From the NCBI GenBank assembly GCA_965219095.1, contig OZ244719.1:637327-701326 (forward strand): a DNA stretch of 64,000 nt. Reading direction: 5' to 3'. This DNA is from Bdellovibrionales bacterium. Lineage in GTDB: Bacteria > Bdellovibrionota > Bdellovibrionia > Bdellovibrionales > UBA1609. Both the position numbers and the translations under genes were made by a program. The notes under the pieces were generated by a model that was not told the origin of the DNA, did not search any database, and worked only from the letters and a program-made list of their open reading frames with translations. Below, piece by piece: positions 44,604 to 62,980 of the stretch (positions are counted from its first letter, which is position 1; each line of letters starts with the position of its first letter).

Positions 44604-45400
44604 TTGCATAAAAATAATTGCAAGGAAATGGAAAAACAGATAAAAAACCTTGCAAAACAGAAAGGAAAAAAGATGACGCCAAAAGATATGTTCAGCACAC
44701 AAAAGAGAAGCCCTCTTAATTTTAGAGTAAACGACATTGCTCATAAGAAGCATCCGCTTGTCATTTTAGCTAATAAAATAGACTGGGGTCGTTTTGATAA
44801 AGTTTTTGGTTCGAAGTATGATGAAAAAAAAGGTCGTTCAGGACTTTCAACTCGTTTAATGGTGGGACTTCAATACTTGAAATACACTTATAATTTAAGT
44901 AACGAGAAGACAATAGAAATGTTCAAAGAGAATCCTCAATGGCAGTATTTTTGTGGTCAGCCTTTTTATTCTTATGAAGATCCCTGTAATAGAAGTTCAT
45001 TGACTAACTGGAGAAAGAGGATGGGGGCTGAGAAGATAGAAGTTCTCTTAGAGGAAACCATTGATTTAGCTTTGAGAGAGGGTTTTGTAAAAAAAAAAAG
45101 AGTTTGAGAATGTAGTTGTTGATACAACTGTTCAAGAGAAAGCAATAGCTTTTCCTACAGACAGCCGTCTTTATTACAAAGCTTTGAAGACTTTAGTTCA
45201 CAGGGCTAAAAAAGAGGGTTTAGTTTTACGTCAGAGCTATAAAAGAAAGTCCAAGGAGTGTTTATTTAAGAATGCTCGTTATGCTCATACAAGAAAAATA
45301 CGTTTAGCACGAAGACAGCAAAGAAAGCTTCATACTTATCTAGGTCGTGTGATAAGAGATGTTACAAGAAAAGGAGGTCCTAAGTTCAATGTCGAATTAT
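44604..45400 (+). pseudogene. IS5-family transposase (DUF772-type N-terminus), frameshifted and 3'-truncated
   Basis: LSTRLMVGLQYLKYTYNLSNEKTIEMFKENPQWQYFCG... matches the InsH-type N-domain. The frame breaks at an A11 run (about 45093-45103). Continues as AFPTDSRLYYKA... and stops abruptly near 45397, before the DDE core. Confidence 0.7.
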
Positions 45401-46191
45401 TTTTTGGAATTGGTATTACTAAAGTTTTTTTGTTTAAAGCCTTTGGGATTTATAATACTAGCACTGTTCCCTACAACTCGAATCACAAAAAGACCTTCTT
45501 TCTCAGCCTTTCTAGCTGAACTTTGATTGGATTTAAGATAAGCTACAGCACCGTAGATTTTTTTGTCTTTATATTCAGGAAACATTTTTTTAAAATCTGC
45601 TAGCTTTTTAAAAAAATGAGTTAAGTCTCTTATACGTAAGGTGGTTTTGACTTCTGTCACAACCACTTCACTGCCATTAAATGCAATAATGTCGAATTCA
45701 AAAGGTTTCCCATTCCATGTCCCAAAAGACTCTGGAAGAATTCTCTGTACTTCAATGTTTCTTTCTTGAAGAAGTTTAACTAAATCACCTTTTGCCAGAG
45801 CCTCCATAAGCTTTCCCCATTGACCTGTGAAAAGTTCGTCTAACTTTGCTATACGTTTATCAGACTTTATAAACTGACGATCGGTCTCAAGTTTTGACTC
45901 TTTTAACAAACGCTCTGTTTCTTTGTGGGCTTTTGCAGTTTCTTTTTGAGATTCTTTGAATTGGCGGTCAGTCTCTTTTTGGGCTTTAGCGATTTCTTGT
46001 TGAGATTCTTTGAGTTGGCGGTCAGTCTCTTTTTGAACTTTAGAGGTTTCTTTGAGTTGGCGGTCAGTCTCTTTTTGAGCTTTGGCATTCTCTTTTTGAG
46101 ACTTTGCCAGTTCTTGAGTTTCTTTAGCAACAGCTTGAATCGAAGCCCATACAGCTTTAGGAATTGAATGATTGGGTTTTTTTAAAGACAT
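45397..46191 (-). CDS. coiled-coil repeat protein with C-terminal PD-(D/E)XK-like nuclease fold
   Basis: N-terminal imperfect repeats (A)KAQKETDRQ(L/F)KES x4-5. C-terminus FEFDIIAFNGSEVVVTEVKTTL gives D...E-x-K with the expected beta-strand context. ATG at 46191 (MSLKKPNH). Confidence 0.6.
   Translation of the reverse strand: MSLKKPNHSIPKAVWASIQAVAKETQELAKSQKENAKAQKETDRQLKETSKVQKETDRQLKESQQEIAKAQKETDRQFKESQKETAKAHKETERLLKESKLETDRQFIKSDKRIAKLDELFTGQWGKLMEALAKGDLVKLLQERNIEVQRILPESFGTWNGKPFEFDIIAFNGSEVVVTEVKTTLRIRDLTHFFKKLADFKKMFPEYKDKKIYGAVAYLKSNQSSARKAEKEGLFVIRVVGNSASIINPKGFKQKNFSNTNSKK
45925..46120. repeat. imperfect 36-42-bp coding tandem repeats
   Basis: GGCGGTCAGTCTCTTTTTG(A/G)GCTTT... 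recurs four times. It is in frame in the gene above. Confidence 0.8.
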
Positions 46192-46436
46192 GCAGTTATA
46201 ATAATATAAAAAAACTTTCTTTTCAAGTGATTTTAAGAGAATTTCTTTCAAATGGCCTCACTGCGACATCCTTCGCTAACCTACTGTAATATAACAGAGA
46301 AATAAGAAAGTACCAGATAAAAAAGTACCAGAAAGGATGTCGCTAGAGATAATACAACAATTAAATCCTGGCTTTAAAAAGTAAGTACAAAAGCTAAGCT
46401 CTTATAAAACTACAAGTAACTTATCACATACTTAGT

Positions 46437-51636: not shown

Positions 51637-52074
51637 ATGGCTAAGATACCATACGTACGCCCCTATGAGAATTCTGGAACAAATTATAAAAGGTATAAAA
51701 AGTGGCTCGGTGAAGTTTTTTACTCAAATACCTGTGCTTTTTGTTTTCTTTCTATGACGCCTAATTCTCCAACGATTGAGCATTATTATCCAAAAGGAAA
51801 ATTTCCTTATAAAGAATCTGATCCTAAGAATTTATTACTTTCCTGTTCTGGGTGTAATAGTATAAAAAGTGATTTTTTTGACGAACAAAACCCTGGTATA
51901 ATTTTTAACTGCCGTAAAGAGAATTTATCTAAAATTCTTGATATTAACAAAACCACAGGAGAACTTAAGCCCAAAAAATCTCTGAATGATAAAAAAAAGG
52001 AAAGAGCTCTTTTTAATATAAAAAAATTTAAATTAAATCTTCCACGCCAAAAAAAGATCGAAAAGATCTTATAA
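51637..52074 (+). CDS. cassette gene C: HNH endonuclease
   Basis: CAFCFLSMTPNSPTIEHYYPKGKF...NLLLSCSGCNSIKS is CxxC...EH...N...CxxCNxxK, the beta-beta-alpha-metal (HNH) finger signature. 12 nt after gene B. Confidence 0.75.
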   Translation: MAKIPYVRPYENSGTNYKRYKKWLGEVFYSNTCAFCFLSMTPNSPTIEHYYPKGKFPYKESDPKNLLLSCSGCNSIKSDFFDEQNPGIIFNCRKENLSKILDINKTTGELKPKKSLNDKKKERALFNIKKFKLNLPRQKKIEKIL

Positions 52075-52362: not shown

Positions 52363-52583
52363 AAATTATTTTTTCACAAGTCCTAACCCAATTAAAGGCT
52401 TCAATATGAAGGGCTTTTACTTTCTATCTTTTCGAATGAATTGTGTAAGTCTTGAAAACAAATTCACACGAAAGCATGAGTTTGCTAAAAAAAGAAGGCC
52501 TATGTAAGCCCAGTAAGGGCCTCCTGCCAAAGTCCATGCTAGGAGAAGAAATCCCACAAGCCAGCTTAAAAACCTTTCCAATT

Positions 52584-53159
52584 TCATGGCCTGTTTAAAA
52601 TTTTTTGTAACTCTCCTGACTGGAACATGTCCATGACAATATCACAGCCACCTATGAGATTTTTGGAAACATACAATTGGGGTATCGTAGGCCAATTACC
52701 ATAAACTTTCACACCCTCTCGTATTTTATCATCATCTAAAACATTGATTGAACTAAATTCCACGTCACAGGCATTGAGAATCTCTACCACTTTAGCTGAA
52801 AAGCCGCACTGAGGTGCTTCTGGGGTTCCTTTCATAAACAAGACAATTTTTTTTTGATTCAGAACGTTTTCTATTTTAGTTTTTGTTTCTTGATTTAAGT
52901 TCATGGGGTTTTCTCCTTTGTGAGTGTTGTTAGAGGGGCTTGTTTTTAAACTCAGAGCGTGAATCTCTCCTGTTTTTAGCTCTTTTTTGAAAAGTGACTT
53001 GATTTGTCTGTGTTGTTCTATCACTTGTAAGTCTTTGAACTCAGGGGTTGAAATATGAATCTGCCAATAATTTTCAGTACCTGTAAGGTCTTTAACCAGA
53101 ACTTGACACATGGGGTAATTTTCTTTGATACGTTTTTGAATGTCTTCTTTCTTAAGCAT
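52584..53159 (-). CDS. BolA-domain / monothiol glutaredoxin (CGFS) fusion protein
   Basis: N-terminal BolA-like region (...WQIHISTPEFKDLQVIEQHRQIKSLF...IHALSLKT). C-terminal Grx4-type region (VLFMKGTPEAPQCGFS...WPTIPQLYV...IGGCDI). Confidence 0.85.
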   Translation of the reverse strand: MLKKEDIQKRIKENYPMCQVLVKDLTGTENYWQIHISTPEFKDLQVIEQHRQIKSLFKKELKTGEIHALSLKTSPSNNTHKGENPMNLNQETKTKIENVLNQKKIVLFMKGTPEAPQCGFSAKVVEILNACDVEFSSINVLDDDKIREGVKVYGNWPTIPQLYVSKNLIGGCDIVMDMFQSGELQKILNRP

Positions 53160-53224
53160 TTCTTTCTTCCTTTATATAGGATAGGTCTGGACAGTCAATA
53201 ACTCTTTGTGTTAGAAATTAGAAG

Positions 53225-53557
53225 ATGAAATGTTTTGAAAAAGCACCTCACTCTCATATTCGTATAGAAAAACAAAAAGCTCAGAAGCTAAAGAAATCGT
53301 CATGGTGGAAACAGAAGCTTTCAGAGGGGATTTGTTATTACTGTGAAAAAAAACTTCCTCAAACACAACTTACAATGGATCACAAAGTTCCTCTTTCTCG
53401 AGGAGGGCTTTCTTCACGTTCTAATGTGGTGTTAAGTTGTGTGTCTTGTAATTCAAAAAAAATGTACTGGACACCTGCGGAAATAATTTTACAATCAGAA
53501 CTGAACAAAGGAGATCTTTTTGCAAGTCAACAAAACAAAGAAGATTGTAACAAGTAG
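53225..53557 (+). CDS. small HNH endonuclease family protein
   Basis: KSSWWKQKLSEGICYYCEKKLPQTQLTMDHKVPLSRGGLSSRSNVVLSCVSCNSKK is a classic small HNH protein layout. Confidence 0.8.
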   Translation: MKCFEKAPHSHIRIEKQKAQKLKKSSWWKQKLSEGICYYCEKKLPQTQLTMDHKVPLSRGGLSSRSNVVLSCVSCNSKKMYWTPAEIILQSELNKGDLFASQQNKEDCNK

Positions 53558-55331
53558 TACGGCTGAGTATTTTGCTAAAAATTTACAGCAAGTGGGGTTT
53601 TCTTCTCCCCTAAAAGCGGTTTTGACAACATTAAAAGAGGCTGTGGATAATTCTTTGGATGCCTGCGAAGAAGCTGGTCTTTTGCCAGAGATCAAAGTCG
53701 AGGTAAAAAAAATAGGAGCCAGTTCTGTAAAAAATACTGATCTTATACAAATTGTTGTTGAAGACAACGGTCCTGGGCTTGATTTAGAGTTCTTGCCTAA
53801 AGTTTTTGGAGAGTATTTAACTTCATCGAAGTTTGGCCAAGGGCAGTGTTCTCGTGGACAACAGGGCATTGGTATTTCAGCAGCTACCACTTGGGCACAA
53901 CTGACGAATGCTAGCGGTGTTTTGGTTGTGAGTAAAACTTCTCGTATGAAAAAAGCTGTGAAGGCTTTTGTCACAGTGGACATTAAAAATAACAAAGGTG
54001 TTATCAAATCCAAAGAGACCATTGGTTGGGATAGACCCCATGGCTTAAGTGTTCATTTTAGAATTGATGGTAAAGCACAGATCAAAGGAGAGGGGGGGCT
54101 TTTAACGTACTTAGAAGGAACTACATTGGTCAATCCTCATCTTGATTTACGTTACAAACTTTTAGATTCTCAATGGATTCATATCAAGAGGGTGGCTCAA
54201 GCCATACCTCAGGTACCACCTCCTACTTTGCCTCATCCTCATACGATGAAACTAGGGGAATTTATGACCCATGCCCACCTTTTTGACAACCTGTCTTTGA
54301 ATCAATTTTTGAAAAAAGCTTTCTTTCGCATTTCTAATAAAACGATTGAAGAGTTTGTCAAAAAAGGTCTTCCTCGACAGCTTTTAAAAGCTCCTGTTTA
54401 CAAAAACAAAGAAGAGGATTTTAAAAAGATCTTCTCTGCTATACAAAAAACAGATCTTCCTCGTCCTTCCACTCAATCTGTGATGACGATAGGAGAAGAG
54501 TCCTTGTCTTCTAGTATTTTAAGGTTAGGAGAGGTGGACTTTTTTAGTGTCAACACAAGGAAGCCTAAAATTTGTGATTTTAAGCCTGTGGTTGTGGAAG
54601 TGGCTATGGCAAGGTTTTTAGATCGAGGTGCTGAGGCTGAAGAAAAGCAAGTCCAGCTTTTGAGGTTTGCTAACCGTGTTCCCTTACAATTTGATAAATC
54701 CTCTTGTGCCATTACAAAGGCTGTGGAATCCATCAATTGGAAGGCTTATGGTCTTAGTCAAGCAAGAAACTCTCTTCCCTCAGGCCCTTATGTCATCGCA
54801 GTCAGCGTAACCTCTCCGTTTATTAAATTTAAAAACGCTTCAAAAGAAACAATTGATGCAAGCCAAGAGTTAGTTGAGGAAATTCGTTTAGCTCTTATGC
54901 AGGGAGGGCAGAAATTAAGTCGCCATCTTAAAAGAGAGCATAGAGCTTTAGAACTTGAAAGAAAGATTGCCCACATTGAAAGGTTTGCTCCTATTTTTGT
55001 GGAGACTTTGTGTCGTATTGCTAAAGCGAACAACAAAAGAAAACAAAAAGCTGTTTTAGGTTTAAAAAAGATTTTAGGAAGGGACTCTAATGAGGCTGAG
55101 AAAAAGTTAGAAATGGCAGAAGAGAAGCTTGCAGGACTTAAAGGTTCAGGAAAGATCAGAAAGGAAAGTTTTGTTGAAAAAAAAGGAGAAGAAGAACAGG
55201 AAAAAGAAAAAAACTTGGGAGAAAAGAAGATAGAAAAAAAAGATGTTAAAAAAGGGAAGACTTCAAAAAATAAAATCAATAAGAGGGTAAAGATTAAAAA
55301 AAAAGAACATTATGCAAAACAAAAGAGATAA
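53520..55331 (+). CDS. top6B: type IIB DNA topoisomerase VI subunit B, with Lys/Glu-rich C-terminal tail
   Basis: Bergerat/GHKL motifs LKEAVDNSLDACEE (N box), VEDNGPGL (G1), SRGQQGIGISAA (G2), followed by a transducer region. TTG start lies 38 nt inside the HNH ORF. About 100-aa K/E-rich tail. Confidence 0.85.
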   Translation: MQVNKTKKIVTSSTAEYFAKNLQQVGFSSPLKAVLTTLKEAVDNSLDACEEAGLLPEIKVEVKKIGASSVKNTDLIQIVVEDNGPGLDLEFLPKVFGEYLTSSKFGQGQCSRGQQGIGISAATTWAQLTNASGVLVVSKTSRMKKAVKAFVTVDIKNNKGVIKSKETIGWDRPHGLSVHFRIDGKAQIKGEGGLLTYLEGTTLVNPHLDLRYKLLDSQWIHIKRVAQAIPQVPPPTLPHPHTMKLGEFMTHAHLFDNLSLNQFLKKAFFRISNKTIEEFVKKGLPRQLLKAPVYKNKEEDFKKIFSAIQKTDLPRPSTQSVMTIGEESLSSSILRLGEVDFFSVNTRKPKICDFKPVVVEVAMARFLDRGAEAEEKQVQLLRFANRVPLQFDKSSCAITKAVESINWKAYGLSQARNSLPSGPYVIAVSVTSPFIKFKNASKETIDASQELVEEIRLALMQGGQKLSRHLKREHRALELERKIAHIERFAPIFVETLCRIAKANNKRKQKAVLGLKKILGRDSNEAEKKLEMAEEKLAGLKGSGKIRKESFVEKKGEEEQEKEKNLGEKKIEKKDVKKGKTSKNKINKRVKIKKKEHYAKQKR

Positions 55332-55374
55332 AACAAAAAACAAAAAAAGAAAAAAATAAAGGGAGCTTAAGTTT

Positions 55375-56535
55375 ATGGCTTTAATGAAAATTCGTGATTT
55401 AAAAATTGATATTCCTAAAGAGGCTAAAGAGTTGTGTGATGCTATGCTGGTTGACTTAGAAAAAGGGAAAAGACCGAGTGTTAATGCAATCAAATGCCGT
55501 TTAGACAATGCCATTTATAACCCTAAACTAGGCTATTTAACTCCAGGCTCAAAAAAAGTGACAACAGAGTTGAATGTGTCGTCGATTCAAAAAATGTCTC
55601 GCACTGTGTTTATGTTAGAAATTTTGCTTAACAATTTAAAAAGTGCCCGTGTGAACACAAAAAGGGAGCTTTATTATATTTCAAAGGGTTTTGTAAGGTC
55701 AGAAACAAACTTAAAGCCTTTAGATTTTTCTGATCAGATTGAAAGTGATGCTATTATTGATTTTATCTGTGAACTTTTAGAAGTCTATAGAGAAGAGATC
55801 AATTGTTATGCTAATGATAGAGGAGGACAGACGTACTCACAGTGTTTGGTCATTACGGAAAGTTTGTCTGATGGAACTAAAGCGACTGTTGATTTAAGTT
55901 CTTTAGGAACAAGTCCTTTCCAGCCTAAGAACAGGCCTCAAAATTTAAAATTAAAAGCTAAGAAGAAAATTAAATTTTGTTTAGTTGTGGAGTCTGAAGG
56001 TACAGCGAATACACTTGTGGCTAATGGTATGACCAAAAGACAGAATTGTATTGTGATGGGAGCTCAAGGTGTTCCCAGTAATGCTGTGAGGGCTTGGTGT
56101 CAGAGCATTCAAAATCAATTGAAAGTCCCTATTTATTTTTTCGGAGATTTAGATGCCTATACTTTACAGAATATTTATAGAACTCTGAAAGCAGGCTCTG
56201 CTTCCAGTTTGATTCGTAACAAATACTTTTCTGCTCCTGATGTTAGGTTTTTAGGCGTTTTGCCAGATGATGTTAAAAAGTATGACCTGCATTGTTACAA
56301 AGTCAATGAAAAAAACTCCTCTGATGCAAGAGCTTTGAAAAAAGCAAGAGACGTTTTAAATAATGATCCTTTCTTCAAGGATTCTAAGAATAAAAAAATA
56401 GCTTCTATTTTAAAGTGGTTGATAAAGAATAAAGTGCGTTGTGAACAGCAAGCTTTCTTTGCTGTAAACCCTAAAGACCCTACAGGTTTTGAAAAGATCA
56501 TTTTAGACAAGATCAAAAGCAAATCATACATTTGA
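55375..56535 (+). CDS. top6A: type IIB DNA topoisomerase VI subunit A (Spo11 family)
   Basis: Winged-helix catalytic Tyr motif KRELYYIS. Toprim Glu in LVVESEGT and DxD in FFGDLDAYT. Confidence 0.9.
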   Translation: MALMKIRDLKIDIPKEAKELCDAMLVDLEKGKRPSVNAIKCRLDNAIYNPKLGYLTPGSKKVTTELNVSSIQKMSRTVFMLEILLNNLKSARVNTKRELYYISKGFVRSETNLKPLDFSDQIESDAIIDFICELLEVYREEINCYANDRGGQTYSQCLVITESLSDGTKATVDLSSLGTSPFQPKNRPQNLKLKAKKKIKFCLVVESEGTANTLVANGMTKRQNCIVMGAQGVPSNAVRAWCQSIQNQLKVPIYFFGDLDAYTLQNIYRTLKAGSASSLIRNKYFSAPDVRFLGVLPDDVKKYDLHCYKVNEKNSSDARALKKARDVLNNDPFFKDSKNKKIASILKWLIKNKVRCEQQAFFAVNPKDPTGFEKIILDKIKSKSYI

Positions 56536-57344
56536 TGCCTCAACTGACCCAAAAGATAGTTCTTGTAATCACTTATGACGGCACAGATTTTTGGGGATGG
56601 CAAAAACAAGCTTTGACCGAGAGGACCGTTCAAGGGGTCTTAGAGAAGGCTCTGGGTCAGTTTTTAGCAGAGCCTATTGTTACAGTAGCTGCAGGTCGAA
56701 CGGATAGAGGTGGCCATGCTTTGAATCAGGTTTTACACTTTTCAACCACTCAAGAGTTTAAAAAATATAAATATTTCACAAAGGCTCTTAATTCCTATTT
56801 GCCTCAAAGCATAGTTGTGAAAAAAGCTTTTCTGATGTCAGAGAAAAAAGATTTTCATGCTTTAAAGAGTGCAGAGTCTAAGATCTACAAGTACCGTATC
56901 AGCCAAACACCGGTTTTATGTCCTTTTGCAAGGCACTTTGTGTACTGGCTGGACCCTCAAAAATTCCAGCTTGATGTAGAAAAACTCCATAATGAGATAC
57001 AGTGTCTTGTGGGTTGTTATGACTTTAAAAGCTTTCAAAACCAAGGCACTGAGGTGTTATCAACAGTAAGGCACTTAAGCCAAGCTTCCTGGGAACTTAA
57101 AGGGGAGGTTTTTTTAGAGTTAAGCCTTTGCAGTGATGGTTTCTTGAAACAGATGGTGCGTAACATTGTTGGGGCTCAATTGGAACTTCAAAAGTCTTAT
57201 AAGAGGGACTCTCTTGGTAGCCTGAAGGAGATTTTAGAGAAAAAAACAAGGACACAAGCTTTTAAAACAGTTCCTTCAAGGGGACTATTTCTTTCTGAGG
57301 TGAAATATCCGTATCCTCTTGACAAGTGGGGAGTAGAAATCTAA
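56535..57344 (+). CDS. truA: tRNA pseudouridine(38-40) synthase TruA
   Basis: YDGTDFWGWQKQ and the catalytic Asp motif GRTDRGGHA. The ATG overlaps the top6A stop (TGATG). Confidence 0.9.
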   Translation: MPQLTQKIVLVITYDGTDFWGWQKQALTERTVQGVLEKALGQFLAEPIVTVAAGRTDRGGHALNQVLHFSTTQEFKKYKYFTKALNSYLPQSIVVKKAFLMSEKKDFHALKSAESKIYKYRISQTPVLCPFARHFVYWLDPQKFQLDVEKLHNEIQCLVGCYDFKSFQNQGTEVLSTVRHLSQASWELKGEVFLELSLCSDGFLKQMVRNIVGAQLELQKSYKRDSLGSLKEILEKKTRTQAFKTVPSRGLFLSEVKYPYPLDKWGVEI

Positions 57345-57358
57345 AACTAAAGTTCGTA

Positions 57359-57793
57359 ATGAAAACGTGGATGGCTAAAGAGACAACAAAAAAACCCTCT
57401 TGGTGGCTTGTGGATGCTTCAGGAAGGAATTTAGGGCGTTTATCTTCGCAGATTGCTATAGTTTTGCGGGGAAAACACATCCCTGAGTTTACCCCCCATG
57501 TTGACCTAGGAGATTTTGTTGTAGTGATCAACTGTGAAAAAATACTTTTGACAGGAAAGAAAGAGGACAAAAAAATCTACCAACATCATACCTCTTACAT
57601 AGGGGGACTTAAGCAGAAGTCATGGAAAGAAATGAAGAAAAAGAACGCATGCTTTCTTATAGAGCATGCTGTAAAAGGAATGCTACCTAAGAATCGTTTA
57701 GGTCGCAAAATCTTTAATAAGTTAAAAGTTTATGAAGGCCCTGAGCACCCCCATCATGCACAAAAACCCCAGGCCTATCCATTATTCAATTAA
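57359..57793 (+). CDS. rplM: 50S ribosomal protein L13
   Basis: MKTWMAKETTKKPSWWLVDASGRNLGRLSSQIAIVLRGKH aligns with the L13 N-terminus. The track start 57326 is too early. Confidence 0.93.
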   Translation: MKTWMAKETTKKPSWWLVDASGRNLGRLSSQIAIVLRGKHIPEFTPHVDLGDFVVVINCEKILLTGKKEDKKIYQHHTSYIGGLKQKSWKEMKKKNACFLIEHAVKGMLPKNRLGRKIFNKLKVYEGPEHPHHAQKPQAYPLFN

Positions 57794-57815
57794 AGGGAAG
57801 TAGGAGTGTGTCAGT

Positions 57816-58214
57816 ATGCTAGAATCTAAAGAAGTTTATTATGCCACAGGAAGAAGAAAGACCAGTTCGGCGAAAGTTTATCTAAGGCGGGGAAAAGGCT
57901 CTATTACGATCAATAAAAAAGACTATAAAAACTATTTTCCATCCTTTTATAGGCAAGCCTTTATTGAAGAACCTTTGAAAAAAACCCAAAGTAGAAAGCT
58001 TTACGATATAACAGTTTCTGTCTCAGGAGGTGGTGAAACGGGACAAATGGGTGCTATTCGACATGGCTTAAGTCGTGTTTTAACCCTTGTGGAGCTTAAA
58101 AACAGAGCTTCTTTAAAGAGTGCTGGTTTTTTGACACGTGATTCTCGCAAAGTAGAAAGGAAGAAGTATGGTAGGCACAAGGCAAGAAAAAGCACACAAT
58201 TTTCAAAAAGGTAG
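57816..58214 (+). CDS. rpsI: 30S ribosomal protein S9
   Basis: YATGRRKTSSAKVYL...GGGETGQMGAIRHGLSR...KYGRHKARKSTQFSKR. Confidence 0.95.
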   Translation: MLESKEVYYATGRRKTSSAKVYLRRGKGSITINKKDYKNYFPSFYRQAFIEEPLKKTQSRKLYDITVSVSGGGETGQMGAIRHGLSRVLTLVELKNRASLKSAGFLTRDSRKVERKKYGRHKARKSTQFSKR

Positions 58215-58256
58215 TAAGAATGAATGATATTTTTTTCATTTTATTATAAGTTTATC

Positions 58257-58285
58257 TTGACATAAGAATAATATTACATTATGTT
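58257..58285 (+). promoter_or_regulatory. candidate sigma70-type promoter of OMP paralogue 1
   Basis: TTGACA, 17-nt spacer, TATGTT. The block TTGACAT.AGAATAATATTACATTA is conserved upstream of paralogue 2 (61466). Confidence 0.35.
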
Positions 58286-58400
58286 TAAGCGTGAAATATA
58301 GAGGAAAAGAAATAGAAATAGGTGAAACTGTGTAAAAAATATAAAGAGGTAAATAAAAAAAGAAATAAACAAATAAGAACAAATAAAAGGAGGATAAAAT

Positions 58401-59102
58401 ATGCAATCAATCAAAAAAATAAGTCTCATAGTAGGAGTTTTAGCTTTTGCAAATCTAGCTTCTGCAGCTATGTCTGACTACAATATATACGTGGGAGCAG
58501 GCGTTAACATGTTCAAACCAAAAAATAAGTTCGATGATGGAAAGGAAGATGTGAAAGCTTCACAAGAGAGGATAACTTATAACAACAAAGTAGGTTTTAA
58601 TGCTGGTGCTTTAGGCTATATCAAAATGGCTGACATGATTTCACTTAGAACTGGGGTTTTCTACTCTATGAAAAATTTTCAAATGAATGATGGTGGGACT
58701 CCTGCTGGTGACAACAACGACCCTCCTGCTGGTAATTCTAAGGCGAATGAAGTCACTTTGTCTTATGTGGATGTTCCTGTGACCTTAGCTTACTCTATGA
58801 ACAAAATGGCTCATATTTATGGGGGAGCAAATGTTAGCTTTAAAGTGAACTACTCTGAGGAAACGGAATTTACTAGTGACATTGTTAAAGATGATAACCT
58901 AAAGAGCTTTCTTATTACAGGAACTATTGGTGGTCAGTTCAATGTTATGGATCGTGTAGGTGTTGATGTTTACGCTGAAATGGGCTTTGGTTCTCTTTTG
59001 GACGTTCCTGAGGCTACTGATAGTACTACAGAGGATCCTGATAACAACGATGTCGCAAAAAGCCCTCTTGGTTTCGGAGCTCGTCTTCTTTATAGATTCT
59101 AA
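58401..59102 (+). CDS. outer-membrane beta-barrel protein (OMP_b-brl/OmpA-like 8-strand type), paralogue 1
   Basis: Signal peptide ...LASA|A, alternating-hydrophobic strands, C-terminal ...GARLLYRF (terminal Phe). AAGGAGG RBS. Confidence 0.8.
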   Translation: MQSIKKISLIVGVLAFANLASAAMSDYNIYVGAGVNMFKPKNKFDDGKEDVKASQERITYNNKVGFNAGALGYIKMADMISLRTGVFYSMKNFQMNDGGTPAGDNNDPPAGNSKANEVTLSYVDVPVTLAYSMNKMAHIYGGANVSFKVNYSEETEFTSDIVKDDNLKSFLITGTIGGQFNVMDRVGVDVYAEMGFGSLLDVPEATDSTTEDPDNNDVAKSPLGFGARLLYRF

Positions 59103-59321: not shown

Positions 59322-60363
59322 ACCCGAGTTTCGACTTTTATATATTGCTCAGAAGCCCCTGTTCTTGAGTTTTAAGTTGAATGGAAGGTTTTAGGTTTTA
59401 AGTAAGTACGAGATGAGAGTACCTAAAAGATTGATGACAAAGTTTTGTGGGCTACGATGGCAAGAATGCTCAAGATGAAACTCTCCTTTTAACACTCCAA
59501 TCACTGACCTCCATAACAGAACGTTTTTTCAACATCAACTTGTCAAATAAGGGAATCAATTTATTCTTCATATTTAATTTGACGTTTGTAATAAGCTTAA
59601 CTCCCTTTTTTAAAAGCTTTTTGAAAAGGTCTGATGAAATATAACCTTTGTCTCCAAAAAGTTTCCCCACCAGCCCTTTACTATAAATCTATAACTTAGC
59701 TTTCGATCATCTACATTTCTCGGAGTTAAGGTAAAACTTAAAAGTTCTCCGAGGTGATTGATAACAATATGGAGTTTAAATCCGAAGAACCAGCCTATGA
59801 CTTCTTTTACCTTTTTTTAGCTAACTTTTGAAACACTTTATTTCGTCCCATTCTTTTATTTTTGAAGAAAAATCGATGTGGAATCAATAAATGTATGCCT
59901 GTGGTTTTACTCATAAGGCTTGTCGAGAAAAGAAACATCAAAGGAGCCTCTTCTTTTTTTATGTTCACAAATCGGGAGTAAGACAACATTTTAGGAAAAT
60001 AAGGTTTAAGATAGACTTTTGCAAACTGGTAAAAGGCTTTAAAATTCCTAAAGCCAGAACTTTGGAAAAGTAAGATAAAGAGTGATAATTTCGCTGGGAG
60101 ACATAGCACAAGAAAAACCTCTTTTATTTTTAGCAAACTAGTTCTAGATGCTGCTGTATGAGAGGGGTTAAAAAATCATCGACAAGAACATAAATTGATA
60201 TGATATAATTAGAATTAAACATCTTAGACCTCCTTGTATGTTTTTTTATAACTCTCAAGTTGTTTTTCCTTGTAAGTTGCTTCTTCAAGAAAACCTTACA
60301 AAGGTCTGAGGTGTTTGTTGATATCAGCTAGCCTTTAGCCTTGAAAAAAGTCAAAACTCGGGT
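59322..60363 (-). mobile_element. IS982-family element, degenerate
   Basis: Terminal repeats ACCCGAGTTTCGACTTTT and AAAAGTCAAAACTCGGGT. A second copy begins at 63737. Confidence 0.8.
59400..60222 (-). pseudogene. IS982 transposase, multiple frameshifts and stops
   Basis: Fragments FQSSGFRNFKAFYQ...YFPKMLSYSRFV and GDKGYISSDLFKKLLKKGVKLIT..KLNMKN match IS982-family motifs but lie in different frames. Confidence 0.75.
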
Positions 60364-60478
60364 TAATAAAATTGATGCTCTAAAAGAGATTTTATTTCAA
60401 AAATGCTCCAAAGTTGATCGATTCTCCTAGCCTTTTATCTGGATTTTTAAAAAACTCTGACTTTTTCACGGACGACTA

Positions 60479-61351
60479 GGGCGTGTCCTCATTTGACTGG
60501 ACCTTTGCTTTGAAGTTTAAGCCAAATAAACATACACGCTATAGATAGTATAGCTTTGAAATTTCTAGCAAGCTTTTCAAATCGAGTAGCAATGCCTCTA
60601 AAATGTTTAAGACGAGCAAAAAGGTTTTCTATCTGATGTCGAGATTTATAAATATGACGATCAAAATCTTTATTTTTCTTTTTGCTATTTTTTCGTCTCG
60701 GTATTACAGGCTTTATCTTCTTACTATGAGCTTTATCTCGTATCTCATCTGAATCATAGGCCTTATCAGCAATCAAATACTCACTATGAAACTCATCAAT
60801 TAAATCACCTGCAACTTGACTGTCGTGGACTTCACCCCCAGTGATTTTAAAACAGAGCGGATTTCCATGCGCATCGGAGGCCATGTGTATTTTTGTTGTG
60901 GTTCCGCCTCTAGATTTTCCCACAGCACGACTTTCTCCACGCCGAGCTCCACTAGCATGCTGATGAACCGATACGTAACTTCCGTCGATGGACACCCACT
61001 CTGTATCAACGTCTTCTTGTAAAGTAAAAAAAAATTATTCCATAGCCCTTTTTGTGCCCATCTATTAAAGCGGTTATATGCTGTCTTCCAAGGACAGAAC
61101 TGTTCAGGAATGTCACGCCACGGACTGCCTGTACGTAATTTTCATAAAATGGCTTCCATAATATTTCTATTGTTTGCTGAATGATAACAGCCCTTCCCTC
61201 TTATAATAGCTTCCAGCTCTTTCCACATAGAATCTGTTAAAACTTTTCTTAACATAAATACCCCCTTTGTTATGAGCTTTTTACAATCTTTATAAATATT
61301 CAACAGGCCTAAGGTCTTGAAAAAGGTCTAGGCAAATGAGGACACGCCCTA
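60479..61351 (-). mobile_element. IS5-family (IS427-group-like) element
   Basis: 17-bp inverted repeats GGGCGTGTCCTCATTTG, flanked by cTA and TAg. Confidence 0.85.
60489..61256 (-). pseudogene. IS427-like transposase, single frame with one in-frame TGA
   Basis: The 255-codon frame is continuous from ATG 61256. Codon 38 is TGA (61143-61145), in MEAIL*KLRTGSPWRDIP. The track ORF 60489..60995 is the distal DDE part (IADKAYDS...). Confidence 0.8.
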
Positions 61352-61602: not shown

Positions 61603-62274
61603 ATGCAATCAATCAAAAAACTAAGTCTTATAGTAGGAGTTTTAGCTTTCGCAAGCCTAGCTTCTGCAGCTATGTCTGACTACAACATTTACGTAGGAGT
61701 AGGTGTTAACATGTTCAAACCAAAAAATAAGTTCGATAACCCAAATACTGATGACGATGCAGGAAACGAGAAAGTGACTTATAACAACAAAATAGGTTTT
61801 AATGCTGGTGCCTTAGGTTATATTAAAATGGCTGACATGATTTCACTTAGAACTGGGGTTTTCTACTCTATGAAAAATTTCAAAGTGAAAGATGGCGAAA
61901 CTACACCTAAAATGAACGAAGTCAACTTGTCTTATGTGGACATTCCTGTGACCTTAGCTTACTCTATGAACAAAATGGCTCATATTTATGGGGGAGCAAA
62001 TGTTAGCTTTAAAGTGAACTACTCTGAGGATATGGAAAACAGCTTTGCTGATGGTGCAAAAATCGTCAATGATGAGAACCTAAAAAGTTTTCTTATTACA
62101 GGAACTGTTGGTGGTCAGTTTAATGTTATGGATCGTGTAGGTGTTGATGTTTACGCTGAAATGGGCTTTGGCTCTCTTTTAGACACTGGAGATGACGACG
62201 AAGCTGATGGTGATAACAACGATCTTGCAAAGAGCCCTCTTGGTTTCGGAGCTCGCCTTTTTTACAAGTTCTAA
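61603..62274 (+). CDS. outer-membrane beta-barrel protein, paralogue 2
   Basis: Signal peptide and strand segments are near-identical to paralogue 1; loops differ. Ends ...GARLFYKF. Confidence 0.8.
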   Translation: MQSIKKLSLIVGVLAFASLASAAMSDYNIYVGVGVNMFKPKNKFDNPNTDDDAGNEKVTYNNKIGFNAGALGYIKMADMISLRTGVFYSMKNFKVKDGETTPKMNEVNLSYVDIPVTLAYSMNKMAHIYGGANVSFKVNYSEDMENSFADGAKIVNDENLKSFLITGTVGGQFNVMDRVGVDVYAEMGFGSLLDTGDDDEADGDNNDLAKSPLGFGARLFYKF

Positions 62275-62353: not shown

Positions 62354-62980
62354 ATGAAAAAGATTAAAAGAATTTTTATTGTATTTTTTTTCATTTGTTT
62401 TTCTCAGGTTCAAGCTGGAATGCCTGATTATGATCTTTATGTAGGTTTGGGAGTTAACTTTTTTAAACCTAAAGACAATAGTACTTCTCAAGGGAGGTTT
62501 AGCAGTAACTTTTCTTACTCTAATAAATTGGGTTTTAACGGTGGAGCTTTAGCTTATATTAAGATGGGAAATAAACTTTCCTTACGCACAGGTTTGTTAG
62601 CTTCTTTAAGAAAATTTGCATTACAACTACCTAATCAAAATATTCCAGAGCAAAATGACTATAGCTTGTCCTATGTTGATCTTCCTTTAACTCTTTCCTA
62701 TTCTATGGCAGATCAGGTCTATGTTTATGGAGGGGGTATTTTAGGCTATAGGTTTAGTTTTTCTTCCAATCAGTTAACGAGAAATTCTAATTTTGATTTT
62801 GATCAAGCCAATTTTAAAACCTATCTTTTAGGCCTCACCTTAGGGGTTCATTTCAATTTTATGGAGGCCATAGGTGTTGATGCTTATGCAGAGATGGGTT
62901 TAGGGTCTTTACTCAAGCAAAATGGTGATCAAGCTACAAACCCTATTGGTTTTGGATTACGAGCTTTGTACAAATTCTAA
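62354..62980 (+). CDS. outer-membrane beta-barrel protein, divergent paralogue 3
   Basis: Signal peptide; shared strand motifs (YDLYVGLGVNFFKPK, LGFNGGALAYIKMG, LSYVDLPLTLSYSM, GVDAYAEMGLGSLL); ends ...LRALYKF. GGGAGGAGG RBS. Confidence 0.8.
   Translation: MKKIKRIFIVFFFICFSQVQAGMPDYDLYVGLGVNFFKPKDNSTSQGRFSSNFSYSNKLGFNGGALAYIKMGNKLSLRTGLLASLRKFALQLPNQNIPEQNDYSLSYVDLPLTLSYSMADQVYVYGGGILGYRFSFSSNQLTRNSNFDFDQANFKTYLLGLTLGVHFNFMEAIGVDAYAEMGLGSLLKQNGDQATNPIGFGLRALYKF

Follow-up and report, generated by a model that had tools for sequence, protein, structure and literature searches.

We report that the top6B and top6A genes in a 64-kb stretch of DNA from a Bdellovibrionales bacterium (hereafter, the window) encode a DNA topoisomerase VI (Topo VI) that very probably is native to the lineage, old and vertically inherited, and that probably was joined once by a neighbouring gene for a small HNH endonuclease. 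The region comprises the following features:

52584..53159, minus strand: bolA-grx4, a single 191-aa ORF (PF01722, PF00462, TIGR00365)
53225-53557, plus strand: HNH gene, 110-aa ORF
53520-55331, plus strand: top6B, 603-aa ORF with a TTG start
54084..54095, plus strand: Top6B K189-G190-E191-G192, aligned with M. mazei KGRR(186-189) (HMMER to 2q2e_B)
55020..55328, plus strand: Top6B C-terminal extension, residues 501-603 (tail alignment, composition and AlphaFold2 model)
55375-56535, plus strand: top6A, 386-aa ORF
56535..57344, plus strand: truA (TIGR00071, 150.6 bits against a cut-off of 142.85)
57359-57793, plus strand: rplM (PF00572, 2.5e-45)
57816-58214, plus strand: rpsI (PF00380, 5e-44)

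The order and positions of the genes from the HNH gene to rpsI agree with an earlier reading made from the letters alone (the sequence-only reading), as do the 38-nt overlap between the HNH gene and top6B, the 43-nt gap between top6B and top6A, and the TGATG junction at which the truA ATG overlaps the top6A stop codon; the family-model matches listed above confirm truA-rplM-rpsI downstream. The TTG start of top6B follows an AAGGAG Shine-Dalgarno sequence at a distance of 6 nt, and the alignment of the closest relative (L016) begins at residue 1 of the window Top6B ORF. One contig of run X1 spans 52400-58500 with zero mismatches, and contigs of four runs (X1 and three further samples) extend over the top6A/truA junction. 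Upstream, bolA-grx4 is transcribed divergently from the HNH gene. In relatives belonging to the HNH-linked subclade bolA and grx are separate genes, whereas they form a single ORF in the window because the bolA stop codon has been lost. Scans for promoters and terminators gave numbers of sites not above those in shuffled sequence. The HNH gene is probably co-transcribed with top6BA in this genome. Among the ORFs of the 64-kb window there was no candidate for a type IIA topoisomerase. The largest window ORFs encode an FtsK-like protein (779 aa) and an exported protein (803 aa), and both lay outside the family-model scan.

Top6B passes two equivalog models, NF003218 (498.3 bits, cut-off 274) and TIGR01052 (398.6 bits, cut-off 380.7), and carries PF09239 (7.3e-47). 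It matches 2q2e_B at 9.5e-86 in an alignment that covers residues 7-491 continuously and takes in the H2TH region, and is 34% identical to M. mazei Top6B over approximately 500 aligned columns. The best fold matches of its AlphaFold2 model are Top6B chains (Foldseek, 9o0g_B at 1e-42), and the domain order is GHKL ATPase, H2TH, transducer, stalk helix and C-terminal extension, with helices at residues 245-310 in the H2TH stretch and the stalk helix at residues 449-500 of the model. The GHKL/Bergerat boxes (E40/N44, D82-N-G-P-G and G113-Q-Q-G-I-G) align to those of M. mazei and S. shibatae Top6B and are invariant in 17 loci, such that the N, G1 and G2 boxes noted earlier are intact when judged against the archaeal proteins. 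The transducer has the switch lysine K442 and W407-K-A-Y410, both kept in all 17 loci compared.

Top6A consists of a winged-helix/5Y-CAP domain (PF04406, 3e-13) and a Toprim domain (PF21180, 1.3e-37), comfortably above both Pfam domain thresholds, and matches 1d3y_A at 1.9e-29. R97-E-L-Y-Y101 aligns with M. jannaschii R99 and Y103, which identifies Y101 as the catalytic tyrosine, and the Toprim ligands E206, D258 and D260 align with M. jannaschii E197, D249 and D251. Hence the catalytic tyrosine, the Toprim glutamate and the DxD motif that had been read from the sequence are present at the 1D3Y positions. All Topo VI catalytic motifs are invariant across 17 relatives, and with every motif intact both subunits look catalytically competent, as had been proposed.

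One functional element departs from the archaeal enzyme. In M. mazei the KGRR loop of Top6B is a sensor of DNA crossings, and its two arginines are essential for strand passage (PMC5922973). The corresponding residues in the window read KGEG, without either arginine, and all 17 loci have [N/K/Q]-G-[D/E]-[A/G] at this position; the sensor-loop arginines are thus absent from every Bdellovibrionota-type Top6B examined. The loop is a functional element and no formal criterion of the Topo VI family. The missing arginines may mean an altered activity or a different way of sensing DNA crossings, and mechanistic conclusions drawn from the archaeal enzyme may not transfer directly.

It could be argued from this loop that the pair is no working topoisomerase but a derivative of the Topo VI type that does something else, for instance as a Spo11/TopoVIB-like break-maker, as Topo VIII or Mini-A, or as part of a defence module. 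Two further observations point the same way: the best NCBIfam model for Top6A, NF003335 (383.2 bits, 1.2e-114), falls just short of its 424-bit cut-off, and PADLOC returns a very weak JetD-type Toprim match for Top6A (E 0.0026). However, the ATP-binding boxes, the switch lysine, WKxY and the H2TH region are intact and invariant, while Topo VIB-like proteins lack H2TH (PMC11302465). Moreover, the subunits are separate, unlike those of Topo VIII, Top6B passes both equivalog models and there are no defence genes in the neighbourhood. We therefore regard a derivative of this kind as exceedingly improbable, and a genuine Topo VI as the preferred reading.

The C-terminal extension bears out the Lys/Glu-rich tail of approximately 100 residues that was described previously: beyond residue 500 the composition is 36% K+R and 16% D+E. 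In the tail alignment residues ~505-543 form a conserved helical segment, while the Lys/Glu-rich part proper covers residues 544-603 (window 55149-55328) and varies in composition among relatives. The AlphaFold2 model has a helix over residues 505-564 and pLDDT values below 50 over residues 544-603, which are probably disordered according to this model. The tail most likely would raise non-specific affinity for DNA, and in its very basic form it is a subclade feature confined to part of the lineage. A clamp-binding-like motif was present in neither Top6B nor Top6A of the window. Such a motif was seen only in a sister clade (L007, L008, L010 and L015).

The Topo VI holoenzyme has the composition A2B2, relaxes and decatenates DNA in an ATP-dependent manner and generates breaks with a 2-nt stagger. 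By analogy, top6B-top6A would encode the native type IIB topoisomerase, A2B2, of a Bdellovibrionales-like predatory bacterium. ATP would make Top6B dimerise and thereby capture one DNA duplex, and Top6A would cleave a second duplex using Tyr101 and the Toprim Mg2+ site formed by E206, D258 and D260. Passage of the first duplex through the break in Top6A would then relax supercoils and decatenate daughter chromosomes. Judging from the published topoisomerase complement of B. bacteriovorus, Topo VI probably acts as a dedicated decatenase beside gyrase. Topo IV is missing from the Topo VI-bearing families that lie outside Pseudomonadota and Terrabacteria (PMC11302465), and a replacement of Topo IV by Topo VI here would be an extrapolation from published work on a relative.

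The two genes are widespread among relatives of this bacterium. They are paired in 20 out of 20 related loci that hold both, and the pair was found in all 15 species-representative genomes, with a Top6A identity of 68-75%, and also in L016, L020, L029, L031, L042 and L047. A database search with Top6A gave 3,237 clusters at E ≤ 1e-10, and identity stays at or above 71% throughout the best 120. Many database relatives (Top6A identity 71-82%), from Bdellovibrionales or Pseudobdellovibrionaceae, are already named DNA topoisomerase VI. In the literature, Allen & Maxwell (2024, PMC11302465) describe Topo VI in 17 bacterial families and in Bdellovibrio bacteriovorus, and a review names B. bacteriovorus Bd2864 as Topo VI (PMC11318664). 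Topo VI of Bdellovibrio-like bacteria is, in other words, already published and routinely annotated. The sequence-only reading had itself conceded that its claim of novelty would fall if the genes proved common in the lineage and already described; both are the case, and the claim is therefore refuted.

With respect to origin, a recent horizontal acquisition, in which the pair would be mobile-element cargo that landed beside truA, has to be weighed against long residence in the lineage. The flanks of the pair differ in every relative examined, and truA-rplM-rpsI lies 3' of top6A only in the window and is absent from that place in all relatives examined. An IS-bounded island has its end approximately 1.1 kb upstream, and IS fragments are present at 59.4-61.0 kb. 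Bacterial Topo VI as a whole, furthermore, derives from archaeal transfers (PMC11302465). Against a recent arrival, top6B-top6A has the same G+C content as the window (0.35-0.36), none of the related genomes sampled lacks the pair, neither subunit has a PHROG match and no integrase lies beside the pair. The nearest Top6A representative outside the lineage is only 32% identical, which argues that there is no recent donor. The upstream neighbourhood is shared with relatives as well: bolA/grx is the upstream neighbour in part of the HNH-linked subclade (L005, L013, L016, L020, L042 and L047), and the bolA/grx-HNH block is common to relatives whose HNH proteins are down to 46% identical. Taken together, recent acquisition is very unlikely. 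Conservation of the pair across Bdellovibrionales-like genomes and its matching G+C content instead fit a lineage-specific, domesticated trait, one of the origins that had been put forward. As to the earlier statement that the pair occupies a core rather than an island context, the pair is indeed not on the island, but the argument from the downstream genes is weak given that truA-rplM-rpsI follows top6A only here and IS elements occur within a few kb.

The HNH gene, previously called an unexplained partner, is explained in kind by its membership of the Gmet_0936 family. The protein matches PF01844 and PF14279 at 1e-11, and its family profile matches 4h9d_A over the full length at 5.3e-39. The zinc ligands (C37, C40, C72 and C75) and the catalytic residues (D52-H53, N67 and N76) are invariant in 19 homologues, while the last ~16 residues, which overlap the top6B start, are unconserved. 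On these sequence features, it is a small stand-alone HNN-type endonuclease of the Gmet_0936/PDB 4H9D family.

The HNH gene lies beside Topo VI in 11 loci, counting the window, and the nine HNH-linked loci in which both genes are complete, window included, form one clade (UFBoot 94-98). The synteny that was to be looked for in relatives is thus present, but in one subclade only, and most members of the HNH family reside elsewhere: Topo VI adjoins five of the best 80 metagenome HNH relatives. The remainder adjoin unrelated housekeeping genes: glmS, TPR genes and those for a DegT aminotransferase, a HAD hydrolase, a Mur-type ligase and a SAM hydroxide adenosyltransferase. Two neighbours were considered as topoisomerase-related candidates and rejected. 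An 815-aa gene downstream of HNH (L018 and L037), considered as a fused type IIB enzyme, gave only a weak match to a cNMP-binding domain, and a recurrent 613-aa neighbour (c21), considered as a GHKL enzyme, was identified as GlmS.

These data bear on whether the HNH protein is a true accessory of Topo VI within the subclade, either nicking near trapped Top6A-DNA adducts so that these are freed, and thus processing stalled cleavage complexes, or being recruited to DNA by Topo VI. The adjacency has been held in the 11 loci across a deep divergence (HNH identity down to 46%) while other flanks change, the spacing is closer than is usual for chance neighbours both here (38-nt overlap) and in L016 (14-nt gap), and the Gmet_0936 study suggested that this nuclease depends on a partner to reach DNA (PMC3765158). 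If true, the adjacency would give a first indication of what a widespread family of small nucleases does in the cell. Yet the HNH gene is missing from 12 of the 21 Topo VI loci in the tree, Topo VI is not close by in 75 of the best 80 HNH relatives, and the neighbours of these show no topoisomerase theme. Within linked loci, HNH and top6B are divergent in L029, a reverse-strand FKBP gene separates them in L017, and gaps reach 110-200 nt in five loci (L020, L031, L042, L047 and L052). In addition, the published families with Topo VI do not include Geobacter, the source of the type member (PMC11302465). An accessory role is accordingly unlikely, and nothing indicates that Topo VI needs the HNH protein. 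The HNH protein is a neighbour inherited within one sub-lineage and no demonstrated partner of Topo VI; under the explanation that we favour, its gene would have come to lie next to top6BA a single time, in the ancestor of the subclade, and then been retained, making the linkage a single-origin trait.

Comparison with known systems places the HNH protein close to Gmet_0936 (Gme HNHE) of Geobacter metallireducens (PDB 4H9D), a weak, non-specific, Mn2+-dependent and dimeric nickase (Xu et al. 2013, PMC3765158). Proteins of this type are stand-alone, ~92-133 aa long, and combine a D-H / N / N active site with a Cys4 zinc site (PMC3765158); the window HNH protein has the size and both sites. The two proteins are 112 aa (Gmet_0936) and 110 aa (window) long and share the zinc and active-site residues, each shifted by one residue. 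They differ in that the window gene adjoins Topo VI and encodes the unconserved C-terminal extension of ~16 residues overlapping top6B.

Among type IIB relatives occurring in bacteria, Topo VIII and Mini-A are found on plasmids and in viruses. Topo VIII is a single-chain fusion of the B and A parts and resides on mobile elements (PMC11302465). The window pair is neither fused nor A-only nor borne by a mobile element; in contrast to both, its two subunits are encoded by distinct chromosomal genes present throughout the lineage, without a PHROG match or a nearby integrase. With archaeal Topo VI (M. mazei, 2Q2E and 9O0G; S. shibatae, 2ZBK; M. jannaschii Top6A, 1D3Y) it shares the domain order and the catalytic residues. 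The differences are that KGRR is replaced by KGEG and that Top6B has, instead of the Ig-like C-terminal domain, a helix followed by a probably disordered Lys/Glu tail. The placement of bacterial Topo VI among archaea is taken from Allen & Maxwell 2024 (PMC11302465).

The closest known system is that of B. bacteriovorus HD100 (Bd2864 and the adjacent Bd2865), which belongs to the same bacterial lineage and has the same B-then-A two-gene order. Relative to HD100 and to Pseudobdellovibrionaceae Topo VI, the window represents another species with other flanking genes, and its HNH neighbour and strongly basic tail characterise a subclade and not the lineage at large. The window therefore adds one intact example of an enzyme known in this lineage and leaves the picture of bacterial Topo VI unchanged.

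The HNH gene and the genes for subunits B and A of DNA topoisomerase VI (Topo VI, type IIB) have the following positions in the ORF list of the window:

53225-53557, HNH gene, 110 aa
53520-55331, top6B, 603 aa, TTG start
55375-56535, top6A, 386 aa

The gene map of the sequence-only reading was thus reproduced exactly, with truA directly after top6A (its ATG overlaps the stop of top6A by a single base, TGATG) and followed by rplM and then rpsI. The 38-nt overlap between the HNH gene and top6B is credible since AAGGAG is present 6 nt before the TTG start and Top6B of the closest relative (locus L016) aligns from residue 1 of the window ORF; the overlap exists because the window HNH protein carries a non-conserved C-terminal extension of approximately 16 residues. 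A single contig from sequencing run X1 covers 52400-58500 with zero mismatches, and three additional samples yielded contigs that bridge the top6A/truA junction; the assembly is sound here.

Top6B scored above the cut-offs of two curated equivalog models (NF003218, 498 bits; TIGR01052, 398.6 bits), passed PF09239 and was matched by M. mazei Top6B unbroken over residues 7-491 (9.5e-86). The best fold matches of its AlphaFold2 model (mean pLDDT 72) were Top6B chains (E 1e-42), those to GyrB, ParE and MutL being far weaker (near 1e-10). Top6A was above threshold for both Pfam domain models, was matched by M. jannaschii Top6A (1.9e-29) and scored slightly under the cut-off of the best NCBIfam model (383 vs 424 bits). 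The catalytic residues are all present in Top6B (E40, N44, D82-N-G-P-G, G113-Q-Q-G-I-G, K442 and W407-K-A-Y410) and in Top6A (R97, Y101, E206, D258 and D260) and are invariant across 17 related loci, in agreement with the catalytic motifs predicted earlier for both subunits.

When prokaryotic species were scanned with one genome each, 15 loci were found to encode a Top6A of 68-75% identity. All come from MAGs, for the most part assigned to Bdellovibrionota, Bdellovibrionales, Oligoflexales or Bacteriovoracaceae; top6B immediately precedes top6A in every one (15/15). In a large protein collection 3,237 Top6A-related clusters were found at E ≤ 1e-10, and each of the best 120 is 71% or more identical; many of them already bear the NCBI name DNA topoisomerase VI, from Bdellovibrionales or Pseudobdellovibrionaceae. 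Since the nearest full-length Top6A representative outside the lineage is 32% identical, the Topo VI clade of this lineage is old and well separated, without a recent donor. Moreover, Topo VI has been published for 17 bacterial families, Pseudobdellovibrionaceae (B. bacteriovorus) being one of them, and in those outside Pseudomonadota and Terrabacteria gyrase is present and Topo IV absent (Allen & Maxwell 2024, PMC11302465); Bd2864 was named Topo VI in a 2023 review (PMC11318664). Relatives being widespread in the lineage and Topo VI already published for B. bacteriovorus, the enzyme is common and already known here, and the suggested novelty falls. The original observation is confirmed and its interpretation in part supported.

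The pair had also been assigned to a core rather than an island context. That it is not island cargo stands, because it is present lineage-wide and its G+C matches the window, but the ribosomal-protein neighbours are a weak basis for it: truA-rplM-rpsI follows top6A only in the window and in none of the relatives examined, and in L016 (82% Top6A identity) the gene downstream of top6A is not truA but one on the reverse strand. The B-A pair is the sole constant part of the locus, the flanks differing in nearly every relative, and DDE transposase fragments are located at 59.4-61.0 kb of the window.

The HNH gene, previously described as an unexplained partner, belongs to the Gmet_0936 family: a profile of 19 homologues matched PDB 4H9D (Gmet_0936, Geobacter metallireducens) over its full length (5.3e-39), and the retained Cys4 zinc site (C37, C40, C72, C75) and active site (D52-H53/N67/N76) correspond one-to-one to the residues described there. 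The Gmet_0936 protein is dimeric and nicks DNA weakly and without specificity, in an Mn2+-dependent manner; its authors regard its biological function as unknown and note that a partner may be needed (PMC3765158). Linkage to top6B does recur in relatives, in 11 loci counting the window (L005, L013, L016, L020, L031, L042, L047, L052, L017, with a reverse-strand FKBP gene in between, and L029). In the last, a metagenome contig (L029:1195-4482), the HNH gene and top6B-top6A are divergent with approximately 190 nt between starts; a local inversion preserved the adjacency and broke any operon. A single clade of the concatenated Top6A+Top6B maximum-likelihood tree (UFBoot 94; 98 in a smaller tree) contains every HNH-linked locus whose genes are complete, nine in total, and none of the 12 HNH-less loci; the linkage arose once and was then inherited. 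A metagenome scan gave at least 460 HNH relatives, and neighbours were examined for the best 80 (at least 1.5 kb of downstream sequence in 56), of which only five are adjacent to Topo VI genes; at other loci the genes found repeatedly beside HNH are glmS, DegT aminotransferase, SAM hydroxide adenosyltransferase, Mur-type ligase, HAD hydrolase and TPR genes. The HNH-top6B gap ranges from -38 nt to about 200 nt, tight coupling being particular to the window and L016. Given the few Topo VI-linked relatives, the single origin and the variable gaps, our reading is that the HNH gene is a syntenic neighbour of top6BA, probably co-transcribed with it in the window; a genuine partnership with Topo VI is very improbable. 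On two unrelated contigs (L018:6362-8809 and L037:1988-4435) a Gmet_0936-type HNH gene closely precedes a gene for an 815-aa protein (17 nt between them in L018). In this protein Pfam gave a single weak hit, to a cyclic-nucleotide-binding domain at the N-terminus, and the remainder is without a match.

Other features in the window are:

45397-46251, (-), 284-aa ORF, C-terminal part weakly matching the archaeal Holliday-junction resolvase Hjc fold (PF01870, E 8e-5)
51637-52074, (+), second HNH gene, PtuB-like (NF041761, 3e-11), unrelated to the first and 1.1 kb upstream
52584-53159, (-), bolA-grx4 read-through ORF, 191 aa (bolA and the monothiol glutaredoxin gene grx4)
58401-59102, 61603-62274 and 62354-62980, three paralogous outer-membrane beta-barrel genes (PF13568)
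59470-60995, DDE transposase fragments separating the first PF13568 gene from the other two

The bolA stop codon is lost in the window, where grx still has its AAGGAG and ATG inside the ORF; an in-frame stop keeps the genes apart in L016, and their reading frames differ in L013 and L020. The ORF looks like either a natural fusion of proteins known to act together or simple stop-codon loss.

The Top6B tail was first described as a Lys/Glu-rich stretch of approximately 100 aa. Its variable part, residues 544-603 in the window, carries a net +20 there and is likewise strongly basic in L016, L013 and L005. The stalk helix (449-500) is followed in all relatives by a conserved segment (consensus RK-KA--GL-K-LGRD---AEK-L), modelled by AlphaFold2 as a helix from 505 to about 543; the residues beyond have pLDDT below 50 and vary in length and composition among relatives, the L020 tail being short and many others mixed or acidic. 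The M. mazei-type Ig-like C-terminal domain is absent from window Top6B, matching the statement by Allen & Maxwell that bacterial Top6B lacks it (PMC11302465). A clamp-binding-like motif is absent from window Top6B and the HNH-linked clade. In a sister clade (L007, L008, L010 and L015) Top6B has QL[DES]L[LIT] or QMDLL near the tail end, and these motifs (QMDLL, QLELI, QLDLL, QLSLT) resemble, by sequence, a beta-clamp-binding pentapeptide.

Finally, the KGRR loop of M. mazei Topo VI is essential for strand passage as a DNA-crossing sensor, and its neutralisation or charge reversal abolishes activity (Wendorff & Berger 2018, PMC5922973). The position of KGRR(186-189) is K189-G-E-G in window Top6B (54084-54095, K189-G192) and [N/K/Q]-G-[D/E]-[A/G], in the same column, in all 17 Bdellovibrionota-type Top6B examined (L001-L020). 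The loss is lineage-wide and does not set the window apart: whereas the M. mazei loop has two arginines, both are missing from all 17, which suggests that DNA-crossing recognition in Bdellovibrionota Topo VI does not simply follow the mechanism of the archaeal model.
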